DNA from: a virus
Lineage: Duplodnaviria; Caudoviricetes
IMG/VR virus record: IMGVR_UViG_2930337131_000001
Coordinates: 64,054-128,053 of that record
Direction: 5' to 3' (one strand)
DNA: 64,000 nt
The notes beneath the pieces are model-generated. The model saw nothing but the letters and a program-made list of their open reading frames with translations. It did not search any database and was not told the origin of the DNA. A program made the translations under genes and the position numbers. Positions within the stretch are counted from its first letter, which is position 1. Every line of letters starts with the position of its first letter. Shown here one piece after another: positions 5,846-50,514 of the stretch.

Positions 5846-5875
5846 GCGACACAAGCCGCTCCGCTCGCTCATCCT
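5846..5875 (+). promoter_or_regulatory. Late-promoter motif (leaderless)
   Basis: GCGACA-N18-CATCCT, 7 nt before GTG 5883. Confidence 0.65.
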
Positions 5876-5882
5876 CCGCCCC

Positions 5883-9120: not shown

Positions 9121-9148
9121 CGCGACGTTAACCCCCCTCTCCCACTTT
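9121..9148 (+). promoter_or_regulatory. Late-promoter motif upstream of the capsid gene (variant spacing)
   Basis: CGCGACGTTAACC is identical to the copies at 17381 and 43475; CACTTT lies at a 15-nt spacing. Confidence 0.55.
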
Positions 9149-9235
9149 CATCCCGCCTCGCGTTGAGGCGTCCCGGTGCTGGCCGGGCGAACGGCGCACG
9201 TCAACCGCCACCCCAGCATCAGGGAGAGCCCCGCA

Positions 9236-12962: not shown

Positions 12963-12992
12963 GCGACCGTAACCGTCCGGGTGGGGCACGGT
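12963..12992 (+). promoter_or_regulatory. Late-promoter motif
   Basis: GCGACC-N18-CACGGT. Confidence 0.6.
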
Positions 12993-13031
12993 GCCCGCGC
13001 CCAACACAGACACGAGAGAGGGGCGTGGAGC

Positions 13032-13577: not shown

Positions 13578-13607
13578 GCGACACAAGCCGTACCCGACGT
13601 GCAGGGT
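13578..13607 (+). promoter_or_regulatory. Late-promoter motif
   Basis: GCGACA-N18-CAGGGT. Confidence 0.6.
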
Positions 13608-13647
13608 GCGCGCCGTCCGGACCGAACCCCCCGAGAGGGAGCCACCC

Positions 13648-16643: not shown

Positions 16644-16672
16644 GCGACACAAGCCGGCCGGGCGCCCACAGT
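16644..16672 (+). promoter_or_regulatory. Late-promoter motif (leaderless)
   Basis: GCGACA-N17-CACAGT, 7 nt before ATG 16680. Confidence 0.65.
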
Positions 16673-16679
16673 GCCCGGC

Positions 16680-17380: not shown

Positions 17381-17411
17381 CGCGACGTTAACCACTCCCG
17401 CTCTCCAAGGT
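17381..17411 (+). promoter_or_regulatory. Late-promoter motif
   Basis: CGCGACGTTAACC; GCGACG-N18-CAAGGT. Confidence 0.65.
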
Positions 17412-17450
17412 GTCCGCGCCCTGACACCGGACACCTTGGAGAGCCCCGTC

Positions 17451-18060: not shown

Positions 18061-18090
18061 GCGACACAAGCCCCACCGGCTTGGCACTGT
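18061..18090 (+). promoter_or_regulatory. Late-promoter motif
   Basis: GCGACA-N18-CACTGT. Confidence 0.6.
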
Positions 18091-18142
18091 CCGCGCGCTG
18101 CCGCACCCCGGCAACCCAGCTACTCAAGAAGAGGTCACCCAC

Positions 18143-24021: not shown

Positions 24022-24051
24022 GCGACGTTAGCCCCCGCGGCCGCCCACTCT
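24022..24051 (+). promoter_or_regulatory. Late-promoter motif
   Basis: GCGACG-N18-CACTCT. Confidence 0.6.
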
Positions 24052-24081
24052 CTCCCCTCCCGTACGGAGAAGGAGAGCAGC

Positions 24082-26262: not shown

Positions 26263-26292
26263 GCGACACTAACCCGCTCTCCCCTCCACTCT
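26263..26292 (+). promoter_or_regulatory. Late-promoter motif
   Basis: GCGACA-N18-CACTCT. Confidence 0.6.
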
Positions 26293-26343
26293 CCGCCTGC
26301 CCCGGACATCCCGGCGGCCGCGGAGACACGGAGGGGAGGACGG

Positions 26344-32349: not shown

Positions 32350-32757
32350 ATGGAGTGGCTCACCTCTCTGGCGCCTGTCCTCGCCCCCCTGTCCGGCATG
32401 GTTGGCGTGCTGGGCGGGGCCTGGATGGTGTACCGGCAGACGAAACACAAGACCGACACCGACGCCCGCACCGCGGAAGCCAACACCGCAGTCACCGCTG
32501 TGACGACCGTGACAGAGGGCTTCACCAAGCTGCTGGAGCAGCAGCGCGAGACCAACGCGAAGACCCTCGAGCGGCTCACCACCGTGGAGGCCCGCGTGGA
32601 GCGCCTCGAGGAGGAACAACGGCAGTGGCGGAGGTGGAAGGCCGCCGCGGTGGAGTACATCCACCAGCTCCGCGCGCTGGTCGGCCGGCTCCGTGAGAGT
32701 CCCGCCCCGGCCCCGCCGCGGGAGCTCGCCGAGGACCTGGGCGACAACGCGACGTAA
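32350..32757 (+). CDS. Single-TM coiled-coil lysis-cassette membrane protein
   Basis: GAGGAGG RBS; N-terminal TM segment followed by a coiled coil. Confidence 0.65.
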   Translation: MEWLTSLAPVLAPLSGMVGVLGGAWMVYRQTKHKTDTDARTAEANTAVTAVTTVTEGFTKLLEQQRETNAKTLERLTTVEARVERLEEEQRQWRRWKAAAVEYIHQLRALVGRLRESPAPAPPRELAEDLGDNAT

Positions 32758-32778
32758 GCCGTCGGCCGCGCGCACAGT
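32749..32778 (+). promoter_or_regulatory. Late-promoter motif
   Basis: GCGACG-N18-CACAGT. Confidence 0.6.
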
Positions 32779-32799
32779 CCGCCCGTCAAGCATCCCCGC

Positions 32800-33138: not shown

Positions 33139-33142
33139 GGAC

Positions 33143-33179
33143 CATGGGGCCCGCCGGCCCTTCAACTGGCGGGTACCAT
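33143..33179 (+). terminator. Stem-loop after the holin-like gene
   Basis: ATGG.GCCCGCCGG...CTGGCGGGT.CCAT. Confidence 0.5.
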
Positions 33180-33185
33180 CGGCAA

Positions 33186-33454: not shown

Positions 33455-33479
33455 ACCCGAACCGGAGGAACACTCGCCC

Positions 33480-36768: not shown

Positions 36769-36885
36769 CGGTGTTCCTCGCTTCGTGGTCTCCCCGGGTG
36801 CTCTCCCGCGGAGGATGCAACGGCGAAGGGGTTAACCTCTCGCCGTTGTCCCTGGCTTACTATTCTACCCGCTTGGTGGGGTAGA

Positions 36886-37299
36886 TCAATGCCGGTTCAG
36901 CAGATCCGCGACGGGAGTTGCAAGTTTCGGGTCCTGGTCCTCGCGGTGCCGCTTATACCAGGCGTCGAGGGCCTCGAGCCCGTCGGCCGCGGCCGCCTTC
37001 TGGTCCTCGGGCATGGCTTCCCACTCGGCGACTGCGTCCTCGTACTCGCCGCGGACCGTGTCCGGGTCCTGGCGATTGAGGGCCTCCGTGATCTCCTGCC
37101 ATGAGGCGCCGCCCAGGGCCTCGGCGAGGACGACGCGGTCGACGATCTCGTTGGCCAACTGGCGAAGCCGGCGGGCTTGCAGGATGCGGTCGGCCGGGCT
37201 GGTGGTCTCGGCGGTGGTCGCGACTGTCTGCCGGGCGAGGTCGGACAGGTCGCGGGCTGCGCGGGCGGTGGTGATCCGGGCCAGGATCTCCGGTTCCAT
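36886..37299 (-). CDS. Hypothetical protein (HTH-like GASWQEITEALN)
   Basis: 137-aa ORF with typical codon bias. Confidence 0.6.
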   Translation of the reverse strand: MEPEILARITTARAARDLSDLARQTVATTAETTSPADRILQARRLRQLANEIVDRVVLAEALGGASWQEITEALNRQDPDTVRGEYEDAVAEWEAMPEDQKAAAADGLEALDAWYKRHREDQDPKLATPVADLLNRH

Positions 37300-37377
37300 G
37301 GAAGGGTCCGATCATGCGGGCGGCGGGCGCCCCAGGTCGGGGGCCCGCCGCTTCGGTACGGGTAGAGGCAGGATGCC

Positions 37378-38619
37378 TTACGAGCCGGTTGCCGTCAGCG
37401 CCTGGTCGAACGCAGCGAAGACAGCATCGACGGTCGCGGGCTGCGGGAGGAGGACCCCCTTCTGCGCGGCGTACTCCTTGATGATGCGGCCGCGTGTCCT
37501 GCGGCCGCTCCCTTCGTGCTGGCCGAGGACCTCCGCAATCGCGGCGCCGGTCAAAGGCCCGTCGAAGACGTCGCGGTGTCCACCGTCGATGACCTCGGCG
37601 ATGATCGCGCGCAGCTCCTCCTCCGTGCTCCACGCGGGGACCACGTACGGCTGGGGCGCGCCCTGCGCCTCTCCGGCCGGGGCGGCGGGTGCGGGCTCCG
37701 GCGCGGCCATCGGCTCGAGAGCCATGGTCGGCTGCGCGGGAACGGTGGCCGTGACCCGGCGCGGCTTCGGGGCAGCGGCCGGAGCGACCGCGGCCGGAGC
37801 CGGTGCGAGAGCTGCAGCGGGCGGGAGCACCGGGGCCGCGGCGGGGGCCGGAGCCTCGAGCGCCTCGACCTCGACCGGCTCAGCGAAGATGCCCGTGGGG
37901 TCGATGCCCGCCGCGCGCAGACCGGCCGCGGCCGTCTCCGCGAGGGGGACGCCGGCGCTGACGAGCTGCAGCGGGAGCAGCGAAGCCACTGGCGCCTTCC
38001 GGCGCCAGGCTCGACCGAACCGGCCGCGGAGCTGCGCCTGGTAGACGAGTCGCTCCTGCTCGAGCTTGAGGACCGTGTCGTACGAGGTGAGTTCCCACAG
38101 CTTCATGCGGCGCCACAGCAGGAAGGTGGGCAGCGGAGAGAGGACCCAGCGCGCCCACCGAACCTTGTCCATCTGACGGCGGCGGCCGGTGGCAGCGCCG
38201 ATACGGACGGCGTAGGTGTGCGTAGCGATCTCGGAGACGATGACCCAGAGCAGGGCCATCGCTCCGTGCGCGATCTTGGACCAGAGGGATTCGCCGGACG
38301 CGACGTTCAACGCGCAGGACGTCAGGCTCAGCACCCAGGGGACGAGCCGCGCCCACCACAGCGGCATCCCCGTGCGGATCAGGAACAGGTGGGCCCCGGT
38401 GAACACGGGGATAGCGGAGTCGATGGCGGTGGGCAGGACCCACGGCTCGGTGAAACCCCAGTCTTCGGCTGCTTTGGACACGGCGTCGAATGATGCGAAG
38501 AAGCCCAGTCCGCCGACGGCGGCTCCGCCAACTGCGGTCAGGCCCGCGCCGAAGCGCTCCCAACGGCTGAGCGGCGGGACGCCGGAGTCGTCCTCGCGGG
38601 TATGGGGGAACTGGCTCAC
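37378..38619 (-). CDS. DUF2637-family membrane protein (Streptomyces plasmid/AICE spread-associated type)
   Basis: Four TM helices, then RWARWVLSPLPTFLLWRRMKLWELTSY, an Ala/Pro linker and a C-terminal HTH. Confidence 0.75.
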   Translation of the reverse strand: MSQFPHTREDDSGVPPLSRWERFGAGLTAVGGAAVGGLGFFASFDAVSKAAEDWGFTEPWVLPTAIDSAIPVFTGAHLFLIRTGMPLWWARLVPWVLSLTSCALNVASGESLWSKIAHGAMALLWVIVSEIATHTYAVRIGAATGRRRQMDKVRWARWVLSPLPTFLLWRRMKLWELTSYDTVLKLEQERLVYQAQLRGRFGRAWRRKAPVASLLPLQLVSAGVPLAETAAAGLRAAGIDPTGIFAEPVEVEALEAPAPAAAPVLPPAAALAPAPAAVAPAAAPKPRRVTATVPAQPTMALEPMAAPEPAPAAPAGEAQGAPQPYVVPAWSTEEELRAIIAEVIDGGHRDVFDGPLTGAAIAEVLGQHEGSGRRTRGRIIKEYAAQKGVLLPQPATVDAVFAAFDQALTATGS

Positions 38620-38771
38620 GGACACCTTTCCTCTCGTTCGGGTCTCCCCGGTCGGCTTATGCTCGTGGCCTTCCGGGTCGACCAAACGATATAGCGTCTT
38701 CCGCCTGTTGTGCCTGAATCAGTTCCCACAGTGCGTCAGGGACGCGGTCATACCGGGTGTTTTGGGGCCGG

Positions 38772-39611
38772 TCACCAGTCGAGGGGCTCCGCCGGCTTCC
38801 GCCGGTCGGGGCCGACGATCCGAGCGACGTGCGCGGAGGACTCGAGCCGGGACAGCAGCCGCTCCCCCAGGATGTCGACCACGCCCAGGCCCGGACTGTC
38901 GGGCGTCCGGCGGCTGCGCAGGTTCGTGGTGTACGCCGTGGGCCGCCCGGCCGAGATGCGGGCGTCGATCAGGTCGATGGTCTCCCGCCGTGCGAACTCC
39001 GTGGCGGTCATGTCCATCTCTCCGCACAGTTCGTCGAGGATCAGCAGCTCGCACGTTACGAACTTCTTGCGGACCTCCCACGCCTTCAAGTTGTGCGGGG
39101 CCGAGTCCGGGCGTCGCCACGTCAGGTACGTCGCGTGCTTGATCATCAGGGTGTCCACGCCCGCGATGACGGCCTCGTTGCCCAGGGCGAACGCCGCGGC
39201 GGTCTTCCCGCTGCCGATGTTCCCCGGGATGATCATGTTCAGGGTCTCCGGGCGGGAGCCGGACCGCTTCGCCTCCACCAGGGAGTGAAGCCAGTTCTGC
39301 AGGGTCTGCGGCTTCTGGTTCTTGTCCAGCTTGAGGGGGCCGGTGGTGAACCGGAAGCCGAGGTACTCCTGGTGGGCCGCGTCCTCGACGCTCCGCTCCC
39401 ATGCGAGTCGTCGCGCGTGAGCCTTCGGCACGGCCGTGTCCTCCCAGAGCTCTATCTCTGATCTGTCGGTGCGGCGGTCGGGGACGCCGAGCTGGGACAT
39501 GTCGGCGCCACCGCGGCGCAGGATCGCGAACATGTGGTCGGTCACGGCGCCTGCCAGGTTCAGGCCGCGCTCGGGGCCCGGGGTCACCGGGGCATCCACC
39601 GTGAGGGACAT
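38772..39611 (-). CDS. DnaC/IstB-like ATPase (helicase loader)
   Basis: GNIGSGKT, LLILDELCGE, AYTTN and GERLLSRL motifs. Confidence 0.8.
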   Translation of the reverse strand: MSLTVDAPVTPGPERGLNLAGAVTDHMFAILRRGGADMSQLGVPDRRTDRSEIELWEDTAVPKAHARRLAWERSVEDAAHQEYLGFRFTTGPLKLDKNQKPQTLQNWLHSLVEAKRSGSRPETLNMIIPGNIGSGKTAAAFALGNEAVIAGVDTLMIKHATYLTWRRPDSAPHNLKAWEVRKKFVTCELLILDELCGEMDMTATEFARRETIDLIDARISAGRPTAYTTNLRSRRTPDSPGLGVVDILGERLLSRLESSAHVARIVGPDRRKPAEPLDW

Positions 39612-39616
39612 CGAGA

Positions 39617-40612
39617 TCACACTCCCTGCGTGCGGTTGACCACGCCGAACGTGGCGTCGTCGGAGTCGTCGTGTTCGGGGGCTTCGGGGGTGCCGGGTGG
39701 GGTCTCGCCCTGCTTGCCCCAGGTCGCCGAGTCGCTGTACGGAACGGCGCCGTTGGAGCGGGTCGGGGTGATGTGGTTGGTGACGACGCCCAGGGCGTCC
39801 TGCCACTGCTGCGCGCTGGGCAGGTGCTTACGCGCGCGGCGGAGGGCGTCCGCGCACTGGCGCTGCGTGTAGCCCGCTTCCAGGGCCTTCTTCACCATGC
39901 CGCGCATAGCGATGTAGCCGTTGGTCTTGCCGACGTACTTGCCCAGGTGCTTCTCAGCGTCCGCCCACCACCACGTGGCGACCTTCTCGGCCGCTTCGTC
40001 GATGGCCTTCTTCTCCGCGGCCTTCTTGTCCGCCGCGGCCTGCTTCTCCGCGTCGTCGGCGGCCTTCTGCTCCGGGGTCCGGCGGGTGCGCCGCTTGGGG
40101 GCGGCCGGCGGCTCCTCGGCGGCCGCGGGCTCCTCCTCCGGGGCAGGGGGCTCCTCGTCGCGGGGGTCGGGCTCGAACCCGTCGCTGCCCAGGGTGCCGT
40201 CCGGGTACTCGACGAGGAACGTGCCGTCCTCCTGCTCGATGACGGGGACGGCCGGGTCCTTCTGCGAGCTGAAGATGGCGTGGTCGGCGGCCCACTGGGG
40301 AACGGGGTACTCGGCGACTGACGTGCCCATCACGACCTTGCCGGTGCGCAGACGGCGGCGCTCGAGGCGGTAATACCCCTTCGCGGCGAGCTCGCGCAGC
40401 GCGGTACGGACGGCCTCGCGGCCCTCCCGACCCTCGCCCTTGGAGAGCTGGTCGGAGCGGACCTGCCACCCCTCCTTCTGGTCCAACAGGTAGGTGAGCA
40501 GGCCGAGGGCGCGGAAGCTGATGCTCGTGTCCCGGGCGGTCGTTGACTCGACTCGCACGTGGTAGACGCGCCGGGCGACCCGCACCCCTGTGGGATCGGA
40601 CAGGCGGCTCAT
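39617..40612 (-). CDS. Phage replication initiator (N-terminal wHTH)
   Basis: ISFRALGLLTYLL...GREAVRTALRELAAKGY; upstream of the loader gene. Confidence 0.75.
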   Translation of the reverse strand: MSRLSDPTGVRVARRVYHVRVESTTARDTSISFRALGLLTYLLDQKEGWQVRSDQLSKGEGREGREAVRTALRELAAKGYYRLERRRLRTGKVVMGTSVAEYPVPQWAADHAIFSSQKDPAVPVIEQEDGTFLVEYPDGTLGSDGFEPDPRDEEPPAPEEEPAAAEEPPAAPKRRTRRTPEQKAADDAEKQAAADKKAAEKKAIDEAAEKVATWWWADAEKHLGKYVGKTNGYIAMRGMVKKALEAGYTQRQCADALRRARKHLPSAQQWQDALGVVTNHITPTRSNGAVPYSDSATWGKQGETPPGTPEAPEHDDSDDATFGVVNRTQGV

Positions 40613-40887
40613 GCGGATGCCTCGCTGGGGGTGTCGTTGGTCAGGCGGAAGTCGGTGCGCTTGGAGCGGCGGCCGGACTCGTTGCTCAGGTAGCGGTACC
40701 GGCGCTCGGCCATGCCCGCGTTGCGCAACTCGGTGACGGCGCTGCGGACCTGGTGGGAGTTCAGGCCCAGGCCGGTGTAGATGGACGCGAGGTCGACCCA
40801 CTCGCCGTCGGGGTGGAGGGCGAGCTGGAAGAGAACACGGTGCGCGCGGTCGGACAGGCGCCGGGGGCGGGTCTGCGTGGTGGTCAT
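40609..40887 (-). CDS. Small winged-HTH protein
   Basis: LSDRAHRVLFQL...LGLNSHQVRSAVTELRNAGMAER. Confidence 0.65.
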   Translation of the reverse strand: MTTTQTRPRRLSDRAHRVLFQLALHPDGEWVDLASIYTGLGLNSHQVRSAVTELRNAGMAERRYRYLSNESGRRSKRTDFRLTNDTPSEASA

Positions 40888-40946
40888 GGTGCTGGTCCCT
40901 GGGAAGAGGGGCCCGGCCGCGAGGGGCCGGACCCGGGCGGCTGTCG

Positions 40947-41552
40947 TCACTCGTCGCGCGCGCCGGGCTGCGCCTTGGGCAGCAGCTCCGGCGTCTCCCG
41001 CAGTTCGTCGTCGAGGTCACCGCGCCGGTAGGCGGCCAGCAGAGCGGCCTTGCCTATCGGCTGCTTCTTGAAGGTCTTCCAGGTCCAGGTGACGGTGCCG
41101 GTGGGCTTCCCGCCCGGCACGAACTTGAGACCGGGGATGAGCTCACCGGACCGCGAGTCGAAGATGGCGCCCGTCTCTGGGTCGCGCTGGGCGTGCCGGA
41201 GAACGGCCGTCTCGAACGACTTCTTCCGGACGATGACGACGTCGTACTCGCCCTTCTCCTCCGCGTACTCGTCGAACGCGGCTTCGTCGGCGATCTCGAA
41301 CCGGTCGCGGGTCTTGTTGACCTTGTAGTGACCGACCTCTTCGCCGCCGACGGTGATGGTGAGGTCCGACTGCTTACGCTCGAGGAACGCCTGGACGAGG
41401 GGGTCCTTCGGGGCGTTCACCTTCGGGGTGATTATCGCCGCCTGGTGTTCCGTCATGGCGCGGGCGATTGCCCCGACGAGCCCGAGAGTATGCAGGTCAG
41501 GCCCGGAGTCCGACTCATCGGCCGGGACGGCGTCGGCAACGTCGTGCGACAT
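40947..41552 (-). CDS. Hypothetical phage protein
   Basis: GAGAGG RBS; DPETGAIF...GELIPGL motif common in phage DNA-metabolism proteins. Confidence 0.7.
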   Translation of the reverse strand: MSHDVADAVPADESDSGPDLHTLGLVGAIARAMTEHQAAIITPKVNAPKDPLVQAFLERKQSDLTITVGGEEVGHYKVNKTRDRFEIADEAAFDEYAEEKGEYDVVIVRKKSFETAVLRHAQRDPETGAIFDSRSGELIPGLKFVPGGKPTGTVTWTWKTFKKQPIGKAALLAAYRRGDLDDELRETPELLPKAQPGARDE

Positions 41553-41735
41553 CTCGGTGTTCCTCTCTTTCCCCGGACGCCTGGCCCAGGGTTCTGGTCC
41601 TCCCGGGCTGGTGTTCGGGGCGCGTCACCTTGGGGTACGTCGCCGGCCGATTTTTGTTACACCTAGGCCCAGGTAGCTGGGTTGCTCTCCCAACTGAGCC
41701 GAATAGTACACCCAGGGCAACGCGATGTGGAGCGC

Positions 41736-41764
41736 GCGACACAAGCGCCTCGTCCGTCTACCTT
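41736..41764 (+). promoter_or_regulatory. Late-promoter motif
   Basis: GCGACA-N17-TACCTT (CGCGACACAAGC). Confidence 0.55.
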
Positions 41765-41982
41765 CCTCGCGGCTCTGCAGCATCCGGCGACGTCACCGGG
41801 AGCAGCAGGGCCCCGGCTCCGCCCCATCCGGAACGAGGGCGGAACCGGCCCGGCGGCAGGTGAGGGTCGGCCATGACGGCATCGTCCCGCTTGCGAGGCG
41901 GGGCGCCGCGGTAGGAGTCCGCGGGCTCGCAGCCCTCACCCGCTGCCGGACACCGACCGCATGGGAGAGGAACGCACCAGCC

Positions 41983-42615
41983 GTGACCGAGACGATCGCC
42001 GCGCCGCGCTACATCGCGTACGTGCCGCTCACCGACCTGTCCCCCGCGCCCCGAAACCCGAAGCGGCACGAGCTCGAGCTGATCATCGCGTCGATCGACA
42101 TGCACGGCCTGGTCGAGATACCCGTCGTCGACGAGCGGACCCAGCAGACCCTCCACGGCCACGGCCGGCGCGAGTCCCTGCTGGAGATGCAGAACCGCGG
42201 GATGCGCGTCCCGAGCGGTGTCGTCGTCGACGAAGACGGGGGCTGGCTGGTCCCTATCCTGCGCGGCTGGCACTCGAGGAACGACGCCGAGGCGGAGGCC
42301 TTGGCCATCAAGCTCAACCGGCTGCCCGGCGAGGGCGGATGGGACCCCCGCGAGCTCGCCGAGATCCTCGAGGACCTGGCGACGAACGAGGTGGAGCTGT
42401 TCGACTCCCTGGCCATTCCCCACGACGAGATCGACAAGATGCTCGGCCAGGTCGACCCGGAGACGTTGCCCGGCGGCGGCCGCGAGGACGAGACGCCCCT
42501 GCTCCACCTGCCCGACGACGGAGAGCGCGGCGACGGACTCAGCCCCGACGACGAGGGCCGCGCACCGCACACGACGTGCCCGGCCTGCGGGCACCTGTTC
42601 ACCTCCAGCCGCTGA
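41983..42615 (+). CDS. ParB/Srx N-terminal-domain protein with C-terminal Zn ribbon
   Basis: LSPAPRNPKRH...SIDMHG...PVVD...HGHGR; CPACGH. Confidence 0.75.
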   Translation: MTETIAAPRYIAYVPLTDLSPAPRNPKRHELELIIASIDMHGLVEIPVVDERTQQTLHGHGRRESLLEMQNRGMRVPSGVVVDEDGGWLVPILRGWHSRNDAEAEALAIKLNRLPGEGGWDPRELAEILEDLATNEVELFDSLAIPHDEIDKMLGQVDPETLPGGGREDETPLLHLPDDGERGDGLSPDDEGRAPHTTCPACGHLFTSSR

Positions 42616-42635
42616 CCGCCTCCCGAGGAACGCCC

Positions 42636-43280
42636 ATGTCCACCCGACGCAAGGCACGCCGGCCCGAGGGCCGCAGCGGTCGCCCACGCCTGCTCTCCGA
42701 AGAGGTCGAGTCCCGTCTCGTCGCGGCCTCCCGCACGGGCGTAGCCGTCGAGCTGGCTGCCGAGATGGCCGGCATCTCTCGCTCCACGTTCCTGGCGTGG
42801 ATGGCCCGCGGCCGCGCCGAGGTCGACGCCCGTGAGGAAGGCAAGAAGCCCGACCCGGCCGAGGAGGAGTACGCGGCCCTGTTCGAGAAGGTCCGCACCG
42901 CCCGTGCCACCGCGGGCGCGCGCGCCATGATGAACATTCGCAGGATCGCGGACGGCGGCATCGTCACCAAGATCACCACCCGCAAGTTCCGCGACTCTGT
43001 CACCGGCGAGATCGTCGAGGAGACCGTCGAGGACCGCACGCCCCCGGACTGGCGCGCTGACGCCTGGTACCTCGAGCGGCAACACCGCGACGCCTACGGC
43101 AAGGACGCGACGCTCGCCCTCGAAATCACCGGCCTCGGTGACGTCCCGGCCGGCGCGGACGACGGGGCCGTCGACCTGGCCGCGCTCGCCGAACGCCTGG
43201 ACCGCAGCCTGTTCTCGGTCGAGTACCCGCCGGAGCTCGAGGACGGCAGCGTCGTTGACGCCGAGGTGGTCGACGAGTGA
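42636..43280 (+). CDS. Terminase small subunit-like HTH protein
   Basis: GRPRLL...AAEMAGISRSTFLAW...DWRADAWYLER. Confidence 0.6.
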   Translation: MSTRRKARRPEGRSGRPRLLSEEVESRLVAASRTGVAVELAAEMAGISRSTFLAWMARGRAEVDAREEGKKPDPAEEEYAALFEKVRTARATAGARAMMNIRRIADGGIVTKITTRKFRDSVTGEIVEETVEDRTPPDWRADAWYLERQHRDAYGKDATLALEITGLGDVPAGADDGAVDLAALAERLDRSLFSVEYPPELEDGSVVDAEVVDE

Positions 43281-43459
43281 CCCGGCAACCGCCCGCGCCT
43301 GCCCCGCTCTGCGGCGCCCGCACCGTCTTCTGGCCCGACGACGAGGCGTGCGACGCAGAGTGCTCCTGGCCGCCCGAGCACGGCGGGAGCAGGCACTTTG
43401 ACGAGAGCCTCGGCGAGTGGGACGAGTCCGAACTGCCCACCGTGCTGCGCGACGAGTAG
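43277..43459 (+). CDS. Small Cys/His protein
   Basis: GTGA overlap with the previous gene; C...C...H....H pattern. Confidence 0.5.
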   Translation: MTRQPPAPAPLCGARTVFWPDDEACDAECSWPPEHGGSRHFDESLGEWDESELPTVLRDE

Positions 43460-43474
43460 GGCCGCAAGCCAGCA

Positions 43475-43505
43475 CGCGACGTTAACCACGCACGCCCTGC
43501 ACGGT
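43475..43505 (+). promoter_or_regulatory. Late-promoter motif
   Basis: CGCGACGTTAACC; GCGACG-N18-CACGGT. Confidence 0.65.
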
Positions 43506-43540
43506 GCCCCCTCCTGATCTCCAGCAGCGGAGGAAGCACC

Positions 43541-44458
43541 GTGACAACCGCCTACTACCCGGGCGCCAGCAGGGCGTACGACTTCTCGAAGACCTACCCG
43601 GGCGACCTGATGGACCCCGACAAGGTCCTCTTGCACACGACCGAGGGGACCACCCTCGTCGACTACTCCAAGGGCGCCGTAGCGCCGAACATCACGGCCA
43701 TGCCGAACTTCGCGAAGAAGCGGCTGGAGTGGTACCAGCACTACCCGTTCACCCACTCCGCGCGCGCCCTGGTCAACAAGGCCGGCGGGGTGGAGACCAA
43801 CACGGACGACGTCGCCCAGGTCGAGCTCGTCGGCACGTGCGACCCCGCGCACCGCAAGACGTGGGGCAAGCTGCAGGCGGGCGTGCATTACATCTTCTGG
43901 CCGGAGGCACCGGACTGGGCGCTCGACGACCTGGCCGACTTCCTGGCCTGGCAGAACGTCAACAACGGCGTGCCGCTGACCACGCCGAAGGACTGGCTCC
44001 CGTACCCGTCCTCGTACGGCAACAGCCGCGTGCGGATGACGTTCGCGGAGTGGCGCGCCGCGAAGGGCGTGCTCGGCCACATGCACCCCCCGGAGAACGA
44101 CCACGGCGACCCGGGAAACATCCCCATCGCCGCGCTCCTGTCCTCGGCGAAGATCAAGGCCGCGGCCCTCAAGGGCGGTTCCACCGGCGGCGGCACGTCC
44201 ACCCCGGCGCCGAAGCCCGCGCCGCCGTTCCCGGGCGCCCAGTACTTCGGTCCGGGCAAGAGCAACGCTCACATCACGGCCATGGGCAAGCAGCTCGTGA
44301 AGAAGGGGTTCGGCAAGTACTACACCTCGGGTCCCGGCCCGACGTGGAGCGATGCGGACCGCAAGAATGTCCGTGCCTTCCAGCTCGCGCACGCCTCCCT
44401 CGCGGGTGACGCCGACGGCATCCCCGGCCCGAAGACGTGGAAGCTGCTGTTCTCCTGA
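43541..44458 (+). CDS. Endolysin (amidase + peptidoglycan-binding domain)
   Basis: LLHTTEG, QVELVG and GHMHPPENDHGDPG motifs; C-terminal ADGIPGPKTW. Confidence 0.9.
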   Translation: MTTAYYPGASRAYDFSKTYPGDLMDPDKVLLHTTEGTTLVDYSKGAVAPNITAMPNFAKKRLEWYQHYPFTHSARALVNKAGGVETNTDDVAQVELVGTCDPAHRKTWGKLQAGVHYIFWPEAPDWALDDLADFLAWQNVNNGVPLTTPKDWLPYPSSYGNSRVRMTFAEWRAAKGVLGHMHPPENDHGDPGNIPIAALLSSAKIKAAALKGGSTGGGTSTPAPKPAPPFPGAQYFGPGKSNAHITAMGKQLVKKGFGKYYTSGPGPTWSDADRKNVRAFQLAHASLAGDADGIPGPKTWKLLFS

Positions 44459-44515
44459 CCCTCCTCCGGCCGGCTCGCACCCGCGGGCCGGTCCCCGACT
44501 CCTGAAAGGCCCGCT

Positions 44516-44983
44516 GTGGCAGGCGAGACCGTCATCACCGTCATCGGAAACCTGGTCGACGACCCCGAACTCCGCTTCACTCCCTCCGGCGCCGCGGTGG
44601 CCAAGTTCCGCGTCGCCTCGACTCCCCGCACCTTCGACCGGCAGACGAACGAGTGGAAGGACGGCGAGAGCCTGTTCCTGACCTGTGCCGTGTGGCGGCA
44701 GGCGGCCGAGAACGTCGCCGAGTCCCTGCAGCGCGGGATGCGCGTCATCGTCCAGGGCCGCCTCAAGCAGCGCTCCTACGAGGACCGTGAGGGCGTCAAG
44801 CGCACGGTCTACGAGCTGGACGTCGAGGAGGTCGGCGCGAGCCTGCGCAACGCCACCGCGAAGGTCACCAAGACCAGCGGGGGCGGCGGGGGCAACGGGG
44901 TGCAGCGCTCGACACCGTCCGCTGGCCGTCCGGCCGCTGACGACCCGTGGGCGGGCCCGGCGCCGGACGAGCCGCCGTTCTAG
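44516..44983 (+). CDS. ssb: Single-stranded DNA-binding protein
   Basis: [38 protein letters not shown]...DEPPF. Confidence 0.95.
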
Positions 44984-44995
44984 CCGTACGCACAC

Positions 44996-45031
44996 GAGAG
45001 GGGCCCCGGACCATCGTCCGGGGCCCCTCTC
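44996..45031. terminator. Bidirectional terminator
   Basis: 16-bp perfect stem GAGAGGGGCCCCGGAC/GTCCGGGGCCCCTCTC between convergent genes. Confidence 0.75.
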
Positions 45032-45037
45032 GGCTGT

Positions 45038-46807
45038 TCAGGCCGCGGCGGGCACGGTCCAGGCCGACGGCAGGATGAGCAAGTCGTCGGCGTCGGCCTG
45101 GCCCTCGTCGTCGGTCGCCTTCTGCTCCTGGCCGGGAGGGTTGGCGGACTCCGAGTTGGTGTCCTGCCCCGGCGGTGTGGCCCCTTCGGCGGGCGTCTCC
45201 ACTGGGGCCGGGGTCTCCTCCACCGGCGGCGCGGGGGTCTCCTCCACCGGCGTGTCGGTGACCGGGGGCGGCGTCTCCTCGTCCGGCGGGGTGGCCGTCC
45301 CGTCCGGCTCGCTCGGCACGGGGTCCGCGCTCGGCGGCGGCGTCGTGTCTGCCGGCGGCGGGGTCGTCCCCTCCGGCTGGCTCGGCGTGGGGTCCGCGGT
45401 CGGCGGCGGGGTCGTCTCGACCGGCGGCGGGGTCGTCTCTACCGGCGGTGGGGTCGTCCCCTCCGGCTGGCTCGGCGTGGGGTCCGCGGTCGGCGGCGGG
45501 GTCGTCTCGACCGGCGGCGGGGTCGTCTGCGCGGGCGGGGTGGTGGTCGTGTCCGTCGGCGGCGTCGGCGGCGTCGTCGGGGTGCTCGGCGTGGACGGGG
45601 TCGACGTCGGTGTGGTGGTGGGCGTGGACGGGGCCGTCGGGGTGGAAGGCGTGGTCGTCTGCACGGGCGGCGGCGTGGTCGTCTGCGCCGGCGGCTCGGG
45701 CGTTGTCACCAGCACCACACCGCCACCAGTGGCGGCCGGGGGCCGCTCAATGCCGATGGCGAGTGCCACGATGTCGTCACCGCCGGGGCCGCCGTACACG
45801 GGCGTCGCGTCCACCAGGCCGAGCACCAGGCGGGCCGCGACCATCGACGGCGCGTCCGACGTCGCTACCGCGGGTTGGGCGATGATCTGGTGCACTTCCT
45901 GGCTGTTCAGGCCGAGGGTGCCCAGGGTGAGGGCTGCGAGCCGCGGCGGGAGCGGGGTGGACCCGCCCATCACGTTCGGGCCCGCGTCCTTGTCCGCCTG
46001 CTGCAGCAGCTTCATGTACTCGGCGATGCGCGCCTGGTCGGTGCCCCACAGCACGTACCGGCCGTGCACCTTCATGTCCTGGTACAGCTCCTGCGACCCG
46101 TCCTGACGTGCCCATGTGCGGGCATAGTCGGCGTCGTAGAAGATGCGCAGGCCGATCTGCTCCTTGCCGTAGGAGAACGTGAAGATCGTACTGTCCGGGC
46201 CGGTCGCGGCCTTGGTCGACATCACCATGCCGTCGGCATCGGTGCACTCGGCCTCGAGCGCACTCACCGGGTTGCACTCGATCTTGCTCGCGCCGGAGAA
46301 ATAGTCGAACTTGTCGTCGGTGAACGGGGCGTTCTCGACCTTGGTCCCGGCCGCGTCCGGCGTGACGTCCGGCGCGCTGGCCTTCGCGTGCACGGGCGCG
46401 TCGTCGACGATGTTCGTGTACCGGCCCAGGGCCCAGCTCGCCGCCAGCGCAGGGAGCAGTGCGGCGACGACGACCGCCTTGCGCCGCCGCTTGCCCGCGG
46501 GCGGGAGCTTCTCCGTGGCGACGTCGTCCTTGAGGTCGACCGGCGGGCGCTCGACGCTCGGCGGGGCCGGGGCGTTCAGCCCCAGCATGTCGTCGAGGTC
46601 CTTGAACTCCGGGCACTGCTCCCGGATCATCCGCTCGGCGGCCTCCCGGGTGATCCCGGGCAGCACGTTGAGCACGTTGTCCACGGCCCGGGTGAAGGTC
46701 TGCCCCTGGCCCATGAACAGCGTGCGCACACCGTGCATCCTGAACAGCGCCGCGTCGGCCGGGAAGTCGCCGACGACGATGTCGATTTTCTCCGCCGGGC
46801 TGCTCAC
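45038..46807 (-). CDS. Single-TM protein with extracellular domain and long Pro/Thr-rich tail
   Basis: KRRRK followed by a TM segment; ETTPPP repeats; 90-bp DNA duplication at 45360/45450. Confidence 0.7.
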   Translation of the reverse strand: MSSPAEKIDIVVGDFPADAALFRMHGVRTLFMGQGQTFTRAVDNVLNVLPGITREAAERMIREQCPEFKDLDDMLGLNAPAPPSVERPPVDLKDDVATEKLPPAGKRRRKAVVVAALLPALAASWALGRYTNIVDDAPVHAKASAPDVTPDAAGTKVENAPFTDDKFDYFSGASKIECNPVSALEAECTDADGMVMSTKAATGPDSTIFTFSYGKEQIGLRIFYDADYARTWARQDGSQELYQDMKVHGRYVLWGTDQARIAEYMKLLQQADKDAGPNVMGGSTPLPPRLAALTLGTLGLNSQEVHQIIAQPAVATSDAPSMVAARLVLGLVDATPVYGGPGGDDIVALAIGIERPPAATGGGVVLVTTPEPPAQTTTPPPVQTTTPSTPTAPSTPTTTPTSTPSTPSTPTTPPTPPTDTTTTPPAQTTPPPVETTPPPTADPTPSQPEGTTPPPVETTPPPVETTPPPTADPTPSQPEGTTPPPADTTPPPSADPVPSEPDGTATPPDEETPPPVTDTPVEETPAPPVEETPAPVETPAEGATPPGQDTNSESANPPGQEQKATDDEGQADADDLLILPSAWTVPAAA

Positions 46808-47193
46808 GGCTGGTGGTCCTTCGCCCTGCGCTGTATCACCTCGGCCATGGCCGCGGCGAGGTTCTGCAGGCGGTCGGGGGTGATCTCCTCGATGTCGGAG
46901 ACCACGAGCTCGCCACCGCCGGGCAGGGCGATCTCCTCGCGGTGGAGGCTCACGTCCTCCAGGCCGTCGTCGGTGCCGGCGTCGTCGCGGGTCTCAAGCG
47001 GGTTCAAGGTCCGCATGAAGGCCGCCATCATCGCGTCGTGCGTCTGCTTGATCCGCTCGGGGCTCCGTGTGTGGCCCGGGGCCAGGGCTCCCGCGGCCGC
47101 CATCGCGCGGCGCGTCTCGATGTCGTGAGGGACTGGGCCGCCCTCGAGCGCACGTTCCAGGCGCTCGGCTTCCCTGTCAGCGCGTCCGAACAT
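46804..47193 (-). CDS. Putative anti-sigma factor (resembles the RsbN N-terminal domain)
   Basis: Overlaps the sigma gene 3' end; REAERLERALEG...AAAGAL...HDAMMAAF. Confidence 0.45.
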   Translation of the reverse strand: MFGRADREAERLERALEGGPVPHDIETRRAMAAAGALAPGHTRSPERIKQTHDAMMAAFMRTLNPLETRDDAGTDDGLEDVSLHREEIALPGGGELVVSDIEEITPDRLQNLAAAMAEVIQRRAKDHQP

Positions 47194-47881
47194 GATGCGC
47201 CCTCTCCCTCTCCAGCACGGCCTCGACACGAACACCTACGACTCTTCCTCTGCTTGCTGCGATGGTCAGCAGCATCTCCACCAGGTCGGCGGAGGACTCC
47301 CCTTCGGGCAAGACCTTCGCCAGCCGCTTCAAGGAGCGATGTTGCAGAGTACGCACTGCACTCTCGGTCTTTCCCATGATCTGCGCAGTATGCGCAGGAG
47401 TGCACCCGTCAAAAAATCGGAGCTGCAGGCACTTACGTTGGTCGGGCTTCAATTCGTTCATGCCCTGGGCGATGGCTTCGGCCACCTGCTTCTGCTCGAG
47501 CTGCTGCGCGACGGACGCTCCCGGCCGTGGCCGGTCCAGCATCAGGTCGTCGGCCTGCAGAACCTCGGTGGGCCGACGCTGCTCCTTGCGCAGGTAGTCG
47601 ACGGCGGTGTTGCGCGTGATGGTCGCGAGCCAGGCCATGGGCTTCGTGCCCGGCTGGTATCGCGCCACGTTTTGCGCCACCTTGATCCAGACCTCTTGCG
47701 CGAGGTCCTCGGAGATGTGCGGGTCGCGGACGTACTGGCGGACCCAGTTATGGACCACGGAGTGCAGCCGCATGTAGAGCTCGCTGATGGCCTCTGGCGC
47801 TTTGGCGCCTCCGGAGGCTGCACGTGCCATGAGCTGGTCAACGGTTACGGATCGGTCGGTCACGGCGTGAAGTCCCCCCAT
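47177..47881 (-). CDS. ECF sigma factor, BldN-like
   Basis: Region 2 EDLAQEVW...AWLATITRNTAVDYLR; region 4 QRKCLQLRFFDG...TAQIMGKTESAVRTLQHRSLKRLAKVLP. Confidence 0.85.
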   Translation of the reverse strand: MGGLHAVTDRSVTVDQLMARAASGGAKAPEAISELYMRLHSVVHNWVRQYVRDPHISEDLAQEVWIKVAQNVARYQPGTKPMAWLATITRNTAVDYLRKEQRRPTEVLQADDLMLDRPRPGASVAQQLEQKQVAEAIAQGMNELKPDQRKCLQLRFFDGCTPAHTAQIMGKTESAVRTLQHRSLKRLAKVLPEGESSADLVEMLLTIAASRGRVVGVRVEAVLERERAHHVRTR

Positions 47882-48113
47882 GTGCCGTCTGGGCGCCCGA
47901 CGTGCGGGTCCGAGGACTCAGAACACCCAACCCGGTACAGGAGGATCGTCTTCCGCTGTGGCGCTCAGGAAGCATAACCGGCCACTCTCCGGGCGTCACC
48001 GTACGGATGTGCGATGTTCGATTGCCCTGGGCTTACTGTAATCTCGCCGTTGCAGGCGAGCGTCGCGGAGAGCACCGCGGCGGGAGCCAGACCTAAAGAG
48101 AAGGAGCACCCCC

Positions 48114-48374
48114 GTGATCACGCCGCCCGCAGTTGACCAGCCGTCCCACATCGACCTGGCCCTGATGCGGTTCCCCCACCAGCAGTGGATCCCGGCGCCG
48201 GCCGCGGCCGCGCACGTGGAGAACGTGGGACTACCTCGTGAAATCCTCCGGCTGGTGATCCGCACCGGCAAACGCCGTGGTGTCCTACGTATCAAGCGCG
48301 TGCCCGACCACGTCGGGTTCTACGTGATGAGGGTCTCCAAGATGCACCCCGATGAGGTCACGGCCACGGCCTGA
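48114..48374 (+). CDS. Small hypothetical protein (possible wHTH)
   Basis: AAGGAG RBS; divergent from the sigma gene. Confidence 0.55.
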   Translation: MITPPAVDQPSHIDLALMRFPHQQWIPAPAAAAHVENVGLPREILRLVIRTGKRRGVLRIKRVPDHVGFYVMRVSKMHPDEVTATA

Positions 48375-48556
48375 CTGATTCTTTGGATAACGGGCCTGGG
48401 CGCCCCTCCCTCCTTGCCAGCCGCGCCGCGAGGCGCGTGGGCTGTGCGCGCGAAAAGCACCTAGGAGGAGGGGGCGCCCAGGCCCGTTATCCGGATCCAC
48501 TCAGACGGTAGTAGCTTGGCACCTCCGACCGACCCGACGTGGGTAGGAGCCACACC

Positions 48557-49084
48557 GTGTCTGACCCGTTCGCCGTGCCCGCCGGCCCGCTGTTCCAGCA
48601 GATCGACCAGGCCCGCGCCGCAGGCGACGAGCGCGCCGCGGCCGCGGCCCTCGAGGAGCTGCTCGCCCTGTACGTACGGCTCGGCAGACGCGAGCTGGGC
48701 ACGATCCCCGAGCAGAACGACTACATCGTCGCCCGACACCTCGGCTTCGTGCCCGAGGCCCTGCAGCGCCTGGGCGTGACGCCCGCCGATCTCCCGGAGC
48801 CTCCCGGCCGCCGGCGCCCACTCCCCCCGCACTCGGCCCCGGCCGACCCGGACAGAGCCGAGATCGCCGAACAGTTCGCCCGCATCGGCGCAGCCGGCGA
48901 CGGGCCGCCGGAACGCTTCGGCGTCGCCTTCCGCCCCCAGGACAACGTCGTGCGGAAGGGGCGGCTGCAGCCCTTCGCCGTCGTCGACACGGACGAGGAC
49001 GGCCTGCCGGTCGCCTGGTACGACACCAGCGAGTGGGCCGAGGTCGTGGCCGACACCGCCAACCGGCTCCGCCTGCTCGACTGA
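48557..49084 (+). CDS. Hypothetical protein
   Basis: AGGAG RBS before GTG. Confidence 0.6.
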   Translation: MSDPFAVPAGPLFQQIDQARAAGDERAAAAALEELLALYVRLGRRELGTIPEQNDYIVARHLGFVPEALQRLGVTPADLPEPPGRRRPLPPHSAPADPDRAEIAEQFARIGAAGDGPPERFGVAFRPQDNVVRKGRLQPFAVVDTDEDGLPVAWYDTSEWAEVVADTANRLRLLD

Positions 49085-49122: not shown

Positions 49123-50514
49123 TCACGCGCTGGGGACGACGCACTGGAAGCACGCCGTGCCCTGGACGAACCGGTCCCCGTGCTCCTCGCACACCTCGAA
49201 CACCACCTCGTCCGGGCGGACCTCGCAGGACTCGCACGCGGTGCCCGGCTGGGCATACTTCTGGCACAGCGGGCAGCGGGGCCAGCCCTCGCACTTCACG
49301 CACCGGTCCGTGCCCGTGGGCGTGGTGATCGGGTCCCGGCACTCCTTGCAGTCCGAGAACCTCGTGCGGCGAAGAAGCATCCCGTCGACGTCCTCGCCGG
49401 GCATCATCGCGTCGGGCTGCCAGACGCTGCTGTTCTTGATCTCCTCGTAGCGCTCCCAGTAGCCGGGGGCGTTCTCCGGGTCGCGGGGAGCGGGCATCAC
49501 CGCGCGGCGCGGCACAGGCGTCGACGCGAGGTCCGACAGGCGCCGGGCGATGACAGCTCCCACCGACCGGGTGTCCGTCGGCAGCGGCCGCAGCAGCACG
49601 GTGAGGATGAGATCGCGGGGGAAGTCGTCCAACAGGAGCCCATCGACGGCGCGGCCCTGGTCCTGCAGAACCTTCCCCGTCAGCAGCAGCTCCGGCCTCT
49701 CGTGGCCGAGACCGAGCAGCAGGTCGACGCCGGGTGTCCTCTCCACGGCTCGAGCCTTCTTCTTCTGGGTACGGATATCGACAGCCTGGCCGTCCTTCCT
49801 TCCCTCCCCGGCTGCAGGAGCTGCAGCGCTGGAACCTACGGAGGGAAGGGGCGAGTCAGTGGTGCGGGTAGTAGGGGAGGGTTGGGTGACTTCAAGTCGC
49901 CCCCCCTCGGACTTGTAGTCACCCCTCTCGGGACTTGTAGTCACCCCCTGACTTGTAGTCGCCCCCTTTTCGGGGTTCTCCACAGGGGTGACTTCCTGTC
50001 GCCCCCCCTCGGAGGGGGTGTTTTCCACAGGGGTGACTTCCAGTCGCCCCTCCTGTTCGCCCTCCGCGGGGGCCGACTCGGGGGCCTGCTTCGGCTTGGG
50101 CTTGCCCTTGTCGGCGCGGGTCTTCTTCGGCGGGGCCGGGGCGATGGCCGGACGATCCTCGCGGGTCAGCGGCCTGCGGCCGAGGCGGGCGCGGAAGGCG
50201 TTCGTGCGCTCGATGTCACGGAACCACTCGTGAGGGATCAGCAGGTCGTACACCGTGGGCCGTCGGTGTTCGGGGATGTACATGGCCGCGCGCTGGTCGC
50301 CCTCGGCGATGAGCTTGCGCTCCTCCATCGCGGCCAGGGCGCGCTGCACGGTGCGCGTGCTGATCTTGGCGTAGCTCGCGATCGTCTTGACCGACGGGAA
50401 GGCGTTGCAGCCGTCTTCGTCGGCCGCTTCGGCGAGGCAGCAGAGGGTGCCCCACTCGTTGATGTCTGCCGTGGGCGCGTCCTTCATCGCCCACAGGATC
50501 GGGTCGAGACTCAC
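49123..50514 (-). CDS. Second replication initiator (HTH_36-like) with intragenic iterons and C-terminal Cys-rich Zn fingers
   Basis: AFPSVKTIASYAKISTRTVQRALAAME; several CxxC pairs at the C-terminus. Confidence 0.75.
   Translation of the reverse strand: MSLDPILWAMKDAPTADINEWGTLCCLAEAADEDGCNAFPSVKTIASYAKISTRTVQRALAAMEERKLIAEGDQRAAMYIPEHRRPTVYDLLIPHEWFRDIERTNAFRARLGRRPLTREDRPAIAPAPPKKTRADKGKPKPKQAPESAPAEGEQEGRLEVTPVENTPSEGGRQEVTPVENPEKGATTSQGVTTSPERGDYKSEGGRLEVTQPSPTTRTTDSPLPSVGSSAAAPAAGEGRKDGQAVDIRTQKKKARAVERTPGVDLLLGLGHERPELLLTGKVLQDQGRAVDGLLLDDFPRDLILTVLLRPLPTDTRSVGAVIARRLSDLASTPVPRRAVMPAPRDPENAPGYWERYEEIKNSSVWQPDAMMPGEDVDGMLLRRTRFSDCKECRDPITTPTGTDRCVKCEGWPRCPLCQKYAQPGTACESCEVRPDEVVFEVCEEHGDRFVQGTACFQCVVPSA
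49888..50050. repeat. Six iterons GACTTNNWGTCRCCCC (putative origin)
   Basis: Copies start at 49888, 49910, 49932, 49950, 49990 and 50035. Confidence 0.8.

Follow-up and report, generated by a model that had tools for sequence, protein, structure and literature searches.

The stretch of DNA studied here (the window, 64,000 nucleotides) corresponds to bases 64054-128053, the second half, of the 128,053-bp virus record IMGVR_UViG_2930337131_000001. The record is complete and has direct terminal repeats, in agreement with a previous reading of the same DNA made without database searches (the sequence-only reading), which had taken the element for a phage. On the minus strand, three consecutive open reading frames (ORFs) lie where that reading had placed them, and we read them as a putative switch for late transcription of the phage. 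They are a gene for a sigma factor of extracytoplasmic function (ECF) type (47177..47881, 234 aa as ORF, assigned from Pfam, NCBIfam, PDB and trees), a small gene whose 129-aa product is a proposed anti-sigma factor (46804..47193, from its fold, hhalign comparisons and its overlap with the sigma gene), and a gene for a 589-aa single-pass membrane protein, a proposed tether or sensor (45038..46807, from a structural model and a family alignment). The nearest named relative of the element is Streptomyces phage Gilgamesh (129,136 bp, host S. lividans), with a DNA identity of 76.7% over 73% of the window. Its genes 92, 91 and 90 are the counterparts of the sigma, small and membrane genes, in identical order, and the two sigma proteins are 79% identical. 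In the Gilgamesh annotation, gene 92 is an “RNA polymerase sigma factor”, and genes 90 and 91 are each a “hypothetical protein”.

The overlaps between neighbouring genes, reported in the sequence-only reading, were found again, and amount to 17 nt and 4 nt. The small gene begins at an ATG 17 nt within the sigma gene, with a GGGAGAGGG ribosome-binding site ahead of it, and the GTG of the membrane gene overlaps the TGA of the small gene (GTGA). On this evidence the three genes are one translationally coupled operon. The true start of the sigma gene is probably the GTG at 47863 (giving 228 aa) and not the ATG at 47881: this GTG is preceded by GGGGGGA, and it agrees with the start in Gilgamesh and most homologs. 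The region upstream of the operon is conserved in all four aligned elements (mean column identity 82%) and holds the sequence TGAC(G/T)-N17-TATGCT, present here as TGACG-N17-TATGCT at 47971..47999 on the minus strand. It fits the sigma-HrdB consensus YSWMS-N16-18-YANNNT, as given in PMC12019637, and makes a candidate housekeeping-type promoter. A generic sigma-70 promoter scan of 44900-48600 returned no site, and so missed this candidate too. We infer that a conserved housekeeping-type promoter would express the operon. One soil metatranscriptome covered a small share of the region. Three of its contigs, ~98% identical to the window, fall one within each gene: 45624-45889 (membrane), 46875-47069 (small) and 47403-47587 (sigma). 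As an RNA library may contain carried-over DNA, they are at most a hint of transcription.

Homologs of all three proteins are found mostly on 121-132-kb contigs in dozens of Streptomyces assemblies. The membrane protein is present in 8 of 151 sampled Streptomyces genomes, and in the loci examined its gene is always accompanied by the sigma and small genes. The order of the trio is constant both in free elements of ~125-130 kb and in integrated relatives: in the three chromosome-sized loci examined it was kept each time, at 48-59% identity, among homologs of phage genes such as those for the single-stranded DNA-binding protein (SSB) and the lysin. The trio is therefore a conserved unit of a phage lineage and not a host core locus. 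Two of the homolog source names are marked “(plasmid)” (S. subrutilus and Streptomyces sp. NBC_01220), and Gilgamesh encodes ParA- and ParB-like proteins as well as two tyrosine integrases. Together, separate contigs, plasmid names, partition proteins and integrases suggest a widespread family of plasmid-prophages. Gilgamesh-like elements thus look like a temperate phage family, possibly one of plasmid-prophages with integrated chromosomal relatives too.

The ECF assignment of the sigma gene, made from the letters alone, was borne out. Its product has the domains PF04542 (Sigma70_r2, 70.8 bits) and PF08281 (region 4, 44.6 bits), and scores 100.4 bits with the ECF superfamily model TIGR02937 (cut-off 42.9), which places it among the ECF (group IV) sigma factors. 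It also matches the phage family phrog_1740 (E 9e-29). The best of its 15 PDB matches was 6dxo_A, the BldN chain of the RsbN-BldN complex (E 1.1e-18). Most of this match came from region 4 (47.9 bits, 25 of 58 residues identical), region 2 being weaker (21.7 bits). In each of the three element-carrying host genomes, the best chromosomal paralog of the phage sigma was BldN (80-82 bits, 33-34% identity, the next paralog reaching ~71 bits), and ShbA scored below it. This host paralog passes the BldN equivalog model with 261.5-261.7 bits, and its downstream gene carries DUF5667, as expected of rsbN.

The resemblance to BldN pointed out in the sequence-only reading therefore holds as to the nearest cellular relative and the match in region 4. 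It does not extend to orthology, which we rejected. Against the equivalog model TIGR02952 the phage sigma obtains 94 bits and does not reach the cut-off of 206.45. Its alignment with host BldN starts at residue 17 of 234, versus residue 89 of 263 in BldN, so that the ~85-aa N-terminal extension of BldN, which is its pro-sequence, is absent; the family alignment reveals instead a conserved C-terminal extension of ~40 residues, absent from BldN. Trees were built from the paralogs retrieved by the phage sigma itself. In the first, the phage sigma clade (support 100/99) falls within a supported group (97/93) that contains BldN, ShbA and some unnamed ECF sigmas. In the second, to which ten BldN-family sigmas from further actinomycetes were added and from which three long-branch rows were omitted, the cellular BldN family forms one clade (98; three Streptomyces and ten other actinomycetes) and the phage sigmas another (99). 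Phylogeny, proposed as a check at the outset, thus puts the phage sigma with BldN and ShbA, in a separate clade beside cellular BldN. The branching order of the phage, BldN and ShbA lineages is not resolved in the tree, and a single clade uniting phage sigmas with the BldN family was not rejected (log-likelihood difference 1.4, p-value of the approximately unbiased test 0.28). On these sequence comparisons, the sigma belongs to a phage-specific ECF lineage that is an ally of BldN and ShbA and stands outside cellular BldN.

The small protein has no transmembrane (TM) segment and is cytoplasmic. Its structural model (predicted local distance difference test score 81, predicted template modelling score 0.35) has three helices (residues 3-16, 25-37 and 45-63) joined by linkers, with good local confidence and no packing. 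Three helices on flexible linkers are also how the RsbN domain is described in PMC6101532, and the model thus has the arrangement that characterises the RsbN-type class III anti-sigma domain. The chain then continues through a linker, modelled with low confidence and containing the conserved motif DAGxxDG, into a beta-hairpin (84-100) and a C-terminal helix (106-126). This hairpin-plus-helix module has no counterpart in RsbN.

The proposal that the small protein resembles the N-terminus of RsbN could not be seen by direct comparison, and became significant through an actinobacterial bridge. A profile of the small-protein family was run against 400 other actinomycete genomes, and matched in 14. 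Eleven of the 14 matches fell in open frames of 324-500 codons that had an ECF sigma gene directly upstream. For all 11 of these sigmas the top NCBIfam model was TIGR02952, the BldN family, with 164-220 bits (four above the cut-off), and DUF5667 was found above the Pfam threshold in eight of nine long matched proteins, as in RsbN. The matches are therefore BldN/RsbN-type pairs of other actinomycetes. In hhalign, the phage family aligned to the N-termini of these BldN-adjacent DUF5667 proteins with a probability of 96.4% (E 1.2e-9) over 57 columns, with a score of 59.7 versus 13.7 for the best of 40 column shuffles, and to the combined family with 94.9%. The actinomycete N-termini in turn aligned to Streptomyces RsbN with 96.8% (E 2.3e-10). 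By profile comparison, then, homology to the RsbN-type class III anti-sigma domain extends over the three helices at the N-terminus, and we propose that the small protein is the anti-sigma factor of the neighbouring sigma.

Several side observations concern this protein family. Pairs of a BldN-family sigma and a DUF5667 protein with an RsbN-type N-terminus occur in non-Streptomyces actinomycetes (loci L107-L120, in genomes of 2.8-7.5 Mb). The RsbN class of anti-sigma domain is presented in PMC6101532 as apparently limited to Streptomyces; the BldN/RsbN-type pair may be much more widespread. Among ten distant members of the small-protein family, one comes from Tenggerimyces flavus (8.5-Mb contig). 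In the viral contig collection, query P0265 found no relatives of the small protein, and query P0001 only three close ones. The hairpin region (residues 84-114, window 46804-46950), which includes H-R-E-E-I-A-L-P-G-G-G-E-L-V-V-S-D-I-E-E-I-T, has weak matches to the RNase E catalytic domain around residues 279-311, probably by chance or through a local structural likeness. Lastly, in protein P0260 (239 aa, from a library of 1.84 billion proteins), residues ~24-98 of the small protein are fused to the basic and TM segment of the membrane protein and are followed by apparently out-of-frame sequence. P0260 omits the C-terminal helix of the small protein and the cytoplasmic domain of the membrane protein, which are exactly the two modules that we propose to contact each other (see below), and is probably a degraded copy.

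The membrane protein had been described from the letters as a single-TM protein with a long Pro/Thr tail, correctly so. It is a single-pass protein with its N-terminus inside, its TM helix (106-128) being flanked by KRRRK. The model gives a confident beta3-alpha2 cytoplasmic domain (~1-75) and a confident alpha/beta ectodomain (~175-335), in which the family alignment shows two invariant cysteines. A variable stalk of 210 residues follows (356-565), 59% of which are Pro or Thr. By sequence, no match was found in Pfam, NCBIfam, PHROG or PDB, DUF5667, the domain of RsbN, being among those absent. A BLASTP comparison with RsbN gave a match confined to the low-complexity, Pro/Thr-rich tails. Structure comparison with VIA-align returned weak matches only (Z at most 4.8), to START/Bet v1-like folds and the PknH sensor domain, and for the N-terminal domain to a mycobacterial regulator (Z again at most 4.8), so that the fold is left unnamed; Foldseek against PDB found nothing at E <= 0.001 for either this model or that of the small protein. 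Separately, a DDLLILxSAWTVxAA motif is conserved up to the very C-terminus of the protein (window 45038-45110), including in integrated relatives that are ~45% identical.

The sequence-only reading had interpreted the last two genes as RsbN split in two. This was not supported. Full-length RsbN unites its anti-sigma domain, a TM helix and a DUF5667 ectodomain in a single chain, and the phage locus encodes no such protein. Nearly all members of the small-protein family stand alone, with about 100-144 aa, the small protein itself has an additional C-terminal module, and the membrane protein combines a cytoplasmic domain of its own with an alpha/beta ectodomain without DUF5667. No homology between the membrane protein and RsbN was found; a simple split is therefore too simple a description. 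The architecture of the membrane protein is analogous to the membrane and outer parts of RsbN, and we propose that it serves as a tether or sensor for the small protein.

What the sigma might transcribe is suggested by a two-block motif shared by many intergenic regions, GCGACRYWARCC-N12-CAyrGTsC. As a family, it reads GCGAC[GAC]N[TA]A[AG][CG]C, followed after a gap of 11-12 nt by CA(C/T)(G/A)GT(G/C)C or CCACTCTC. In the 128-kb genome, all 18 sites are on the plus strand, which is the late-gene strand, where ~2.1 would be expected on both strands, and in the window 11 sites are present versus 1.16 expected, a number reached by none of 100 dinucleotide-preserving shuffles; the pattern was, however, derived from this genome before being counted there, so independent tests matter. 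These are the strand bias, the location of the sites, Gilgamesh, the related loci and the host-genome control. By a rough gene map, 14 of the 18 sites are intergenic, when ~16% of the genome is non-coding. In Gilgamesh all 14 sites are on the plus strand, versus 1.9 expected, and nine are wholly within annotated intergenic gaps, the intergenic sites preceding gene 48 (a giant gene), 57, 62-63 (tail terminator), 64, the tail assembly chaperone, 69, the membrane protein gene 74, lysin A and 149. The lysin-type site is kept, both blocks intact and the spacer varying, in 9 of 13 related loci, two of which have a sigma only ~55% identical; in loci L097 and L099 it is just upstream of a mapped lysin homolog. 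Finally, the strict two-block pattern occurs four times in three host genomes (~30 Mb), always on phage-element contigs, and its reversed control not once.

Within the window, the 11 plus-strand sites are followed by five ORFs of identified function: the major head protein (site 9122..9153, gene at 9176), the major tail protein (17382..17413, gene at 17436), a minor tail protein (24022..24053, gene at 24082), a tail fibre protein of 1,837 aa (26263..26294, gene at 26344) and the endolysin (43476..43507, gene at 43541). The endolysin site reads GCGACGTTAACC-N12-CACGGTGC, and has a Gilgamesh copy before lysin A. The other six ORFs are without PHROG match. They encode 212 aa (site 5846..5877, ORF at 5883), 163 aa (12963..12994, ORF at 13032), 210 aa (13578..13609, ORF at 13606), a product starting at ATG 16680 (16644..16674), 174 aa (18061..18092, ORF at 18143) and 112 aa (32749..32780, ORF at 32800). 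The Gilgamesh counterparts of the sites at 16644 and 18061 precede genes 62 and 63 (tail terminator) and the tail assembly chaperone gene, respectively. ATG 16680 is 5 nt past the -10-like block, and in all an ATG is found 5-6 nt past this block at two sites in this genome and at the annotated starts of Gilgamesh genes 62 and 149; this spacing is the geometry of leaderless-mRNA promoters. A phage-specific motif thus precedes virion and lysis genes, as in the class of phage late-gene sigmas.

According to PMC2375139 the BldN promoter is CGTAAC-N16-CGTTGA, and according to PMC12019637 the ShbA promoter is CGTAAC-N16-CGATGA. The phage motif has in common with them an AAC-containing -35 block, a spacing of 15-16 nt and a GT-containing -10 block. 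Its -10 block CAyrGTsC matches neither CGTTGA nor CGATGA, and this difference fits a sigma whose region 4 is more BldN-like than its region 2. The sequence-only reading had noted CGTAAC or CGTTAAC in some late motifs. Such sites do belong to a strongly non-random motif family, and only the one at 12963..12994 reads CGTAAC (CGTAAC-N16-GGTGCC). CGTAAC itself is not enriched, with 11 copies on both strands of the 128-kb genome versus ~38 expected from base composition, none of them followed by CGTTGA; as an enriched BldN-type -35 element of the phage it was rejected. We propose that the phage sigma would be the reader of the late motif.

The reading that we favour, with a probability of about 0.6, is that a phage-owned sigma/anti-sigma module gates late transcription in this temperate, Gilgamesh-like Streptomyces phage of ~128 kb. 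A host-type, housekeeping promoter would express the operon, and the RsbN-type helices of the small protein would hold the sigma inactive, as RsbN holds BldN. The C-terminal hairpin and helix of the small protein would dock on the cytoplasmic domain of the membrane protein, so that two polypeptides together would make up an anti-sigma anchored in the membrane. The sigma would then be freed when the ectodomain and the Pro/Thr stalk receive a signal at the envelope, and would direct host RNA polymerase to the late promoters, several of which would give leaderless mRNAs. Within this scheme, we hold the pairing of sigma and anti-sigma with more confidence than the overall model, and the role of the membrane protein with less.

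A number of observations weigh against it. Besides the origin of the motif pattern mentioned above, no copy of the late motif is found upstream of the sigma operon, and the autoregulation typical of ECF sigmas is thus not seen; the motif has no minus-strand copy at all, so the operon is outside its control. The role of the membrane protein is drawn from gene order and coupling, its fold matches being weak. For the small protein, phmmer found no match in PDB, and a profile of the close family retrieved no RsbN chain, only RNase E fragments (E 0.08-0.36). In comparison with Streptomyces RsbN, BLASTP gave E 11, and hhalign 0.5% with narrow profiles and a weak 3-4.5% (P 0.009-0.015) with wide ones, the wide small-protein alignment being made of 43 representatives from 1.84 billion proteins. 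The wide-profile alignment is nevertheless co-linear with RsbN residues 12-85, with a score of 21-23, the best of 40 column shuffles reaching 12.8. Structure comparison of the small protein, by a method other than Foldseek, with 48,161 representative PDB chains ranked the RsbN chain 6dxo_D fifth (60 of 61 residues aligned, 23% identity); the Z score is low (3.9) and tied with unrelated chains, so this match is corroboration only. In the hhalign alignment, the RsbN alpha-3 contacts K63, V64, V65, R67 and A68, taken from PMC6101532, are not conserved in the phage protein.

It could also be that a host ECF sigma (BldN or ShbA, for example) or another phage DNA-binding protein reads the late motif, and that the phage sigma serves other genes, for instance in lysogeny or exclusion. 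In favour of this, no motif copy stands before the sigma operon. The published BldN and ShbA promoters have the AAC-type -35 block and the N16 spacing in common with the motif, and according to the Gilgamesh annotation the phage encodes many helix-turn-helix proteins. However, the motif travels with the sigma, even in relatives whose sigma is ~55% identical, and was not found in host genomes outside phage contigs; its -10 block fits neither of the two host promoters. No alternative regulon of the sigma was seen either, though a second enriched motif was not looked for. We consider this explanation unlikely, while keeping it in view.

Interference with host development is another possibility. 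Here the phage sigma would activate BldN targets (chaplins, rodlins, bldM), or the small protein would sequester host BldN and keep the mycelium in a vegetative state favourable to the phage. BldN is indeed the nearest host paralog, with 25 of 58 residues identical in region 4, the small protein bears an RsbN-type domain, and CGTAAC or CGTTAAC occurs within some motif copies. In addition, BldN-dependent development limits plaque expansion, and plaques on a delta-bldN strain stay large, according to PMC10117723. The strict motif is nonetheless restricted to phage contigs in the three host genomes, its -10 block is unlike the CGTTGA reported for BldN, the sigma stays below the cut-off of the BldN equivalog model and branches in a clade apart, and translational coupling ties the small gene to the sigma of the phage itself. 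In BldN, E11 and D20 form salt bridges to R67 of RsbN, as reported in PMC6101532; these two residues align with G25 and M37 of the phage sigma, and R67 with H52 of the phage protein. These differences suggest a phage pair that co-evolved separately. Of the two alternatives offered by the sequence-only reading, a late-gene sigma thus fits the promoter evidence, and a rewiring of sporulation is unsupported, as no phage-type promoter was found outside phage contigs in ~30 Mb. The chance that the module acts on host development seems slim to us, well below that of the late switch, though the limit that BldN-dependent development sets on phage spread (PMC10117723) speaks in its favour.

Just as slim is the chance of a two-faced module, gating late genes and also coupled to host development, either through the RsbN-like protein or through the wall-spanning stalk of the membrane protein. 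By the first route, binding of host BldN would keep the mycelium vegetative and phage-permissive. By the second, sensing of the envelope changes of aerial growth would trigger the late genes before the host escapes into spores. If this were true, a relative of a developmental anti-sigma would be encoded by a phage family found in dozens of Streptomyces assemblies (~125-130-kb contigs).

In the least probable reading, the sigma alone would be regulatory, and the small and membrane genes would simply be carried along in its transcript, encoding for instance a protein of the surface or of superinfection exclusion together with the chaperone that serves it. In its favour, surface proteins rich in Pro and Thr are frequent among actinobacteria, the membrane protein is without a family or a clear fold match, and the C-terminal half of the small protein lacks an RsbN counterpart. 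Against it are the significant homology of the N-terminal helices to anti-sigma domains beside BldN-family sigmas, the overlap of the genes, and a trio kept over ~50% sequence divergence.

If the late switch is retained, its closest parallel is the sigma-BldN/RsbN pair of S. venezuelae (PDB 6DXO; PMC6101532). In both, an ECF sigma comes first and its inhibitor second, BldN is at once the closest solved structure and the closest host paralog of the phage sigma, and the three linker-joined helices are homologous. The logic is also alike, with a cytoplasmic inhibitor domain, a single-pass segment, an ectodomain and a Pro-rich tail. The phage pair differs in that its sigma is outside the cellular BldN clade and below the family cut-off, with an extension at the C-terminus instead of the N-terminus; that the inhibitor domain stands as a soluble protein of its own, extended by a hairpin-plus-helix module; that its membrane protein has a cytoplasmic domain of its own and an alpha/beta ectodomain without DUF5667; and that its candidate targets are late genes, not chaplin and rodlin genes. 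Sigma-ShbA of Streptomyces, which drives hrdB (PMC12019637), shares its supported ECF group with the phage sigma and BldN, and has a promoter with an AAC-type -35 block and similar spacing; it differs by a lower score than BldN against the phage sigma and by another -10 element.

As do the middle and late sigmas of other phages (phrog_1740), the phage gene would provide the sigma by which host RNA polymerase is turned to the promoters of the phage. T4 gp55 and SPO1 gp28 and gp34 are the classic examples. Unlike them, the sigma described here is accompanied by a membrane partner and a recognisable cognate anti-sigma domain, and this combination speaks for gating by a signal over a cascade that is purely temporal. 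A division of labour between separate polypeptides exists for CnrH, where the separate sensor CnrX acts with the inhibitor CnrY. An inhibitor and an extracytoplasmic sensor working together as two polypeptides would be the common point with the phage module. No relationship of sequence or fold was found, the phage inhibitor is soluble and not membrane-embedded, and the interaction between small protein and membrane protein is a putative one; the CnrY-CnrH pair is itself mentioned in PMC6101532.

Two other genes of the element deserve mention. The late-promoter motif also stands before a giant ORF of 3,998 codons (genome 57564-69560, its end being in window 1-5507). This ORF corresponds in Gilgamesh to gene 48 (31978-45852, 13,875 bases), a “hypothetical protein” whose annotated ATG falls within the -10-like block; another ATG, in frame and 12 nt further downstream, would suit a leaderless start. 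Just upstream of the neighbourhood of the sigma operon, a minus-strand gene (window 49123-50514) encodes a 463-aa protein with an HTH_36 domain, which matches phage replication-initiation families (phrog_1032, E 2e-16).

In the literature searched (on Gilgamesh, on sigmas of Streptomyces phage-plasmids, and on ECF and anti-sigma factors of actinobacteriophages), judged by titles and the beginnings of abstracts, no description of this module was found. That Gilgamesh gene 92 is annotated as a sigma was already known; new are the inhibitor domain as a free protein, the new membrane partner and a defined candidate late regulon. This regulon comprises 18 promoters in the present phage and 14 in the cultured phage Gilgamesh, and the model is therefore directly testable in Streptomyces lividans. 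In the host genomes searched, the sigma, the anti-sigma and the promoter set are on phage contigs only, which makes them a candidate orthogonal expression switch for Streptomyces engineering. Phage sigmas are familiar, and a phage sigma with a recognisable anti-sigma domain and a membrane partner much less so. The RsbN-type domain is now seen as a free-standing phage protein, and also beside BldN-family sigmas of other actinomycetes. For the phage family, our reading implies that late transcription, and perhaps prophage induction, would be gated by an envelope signal instead of a fixed timer.

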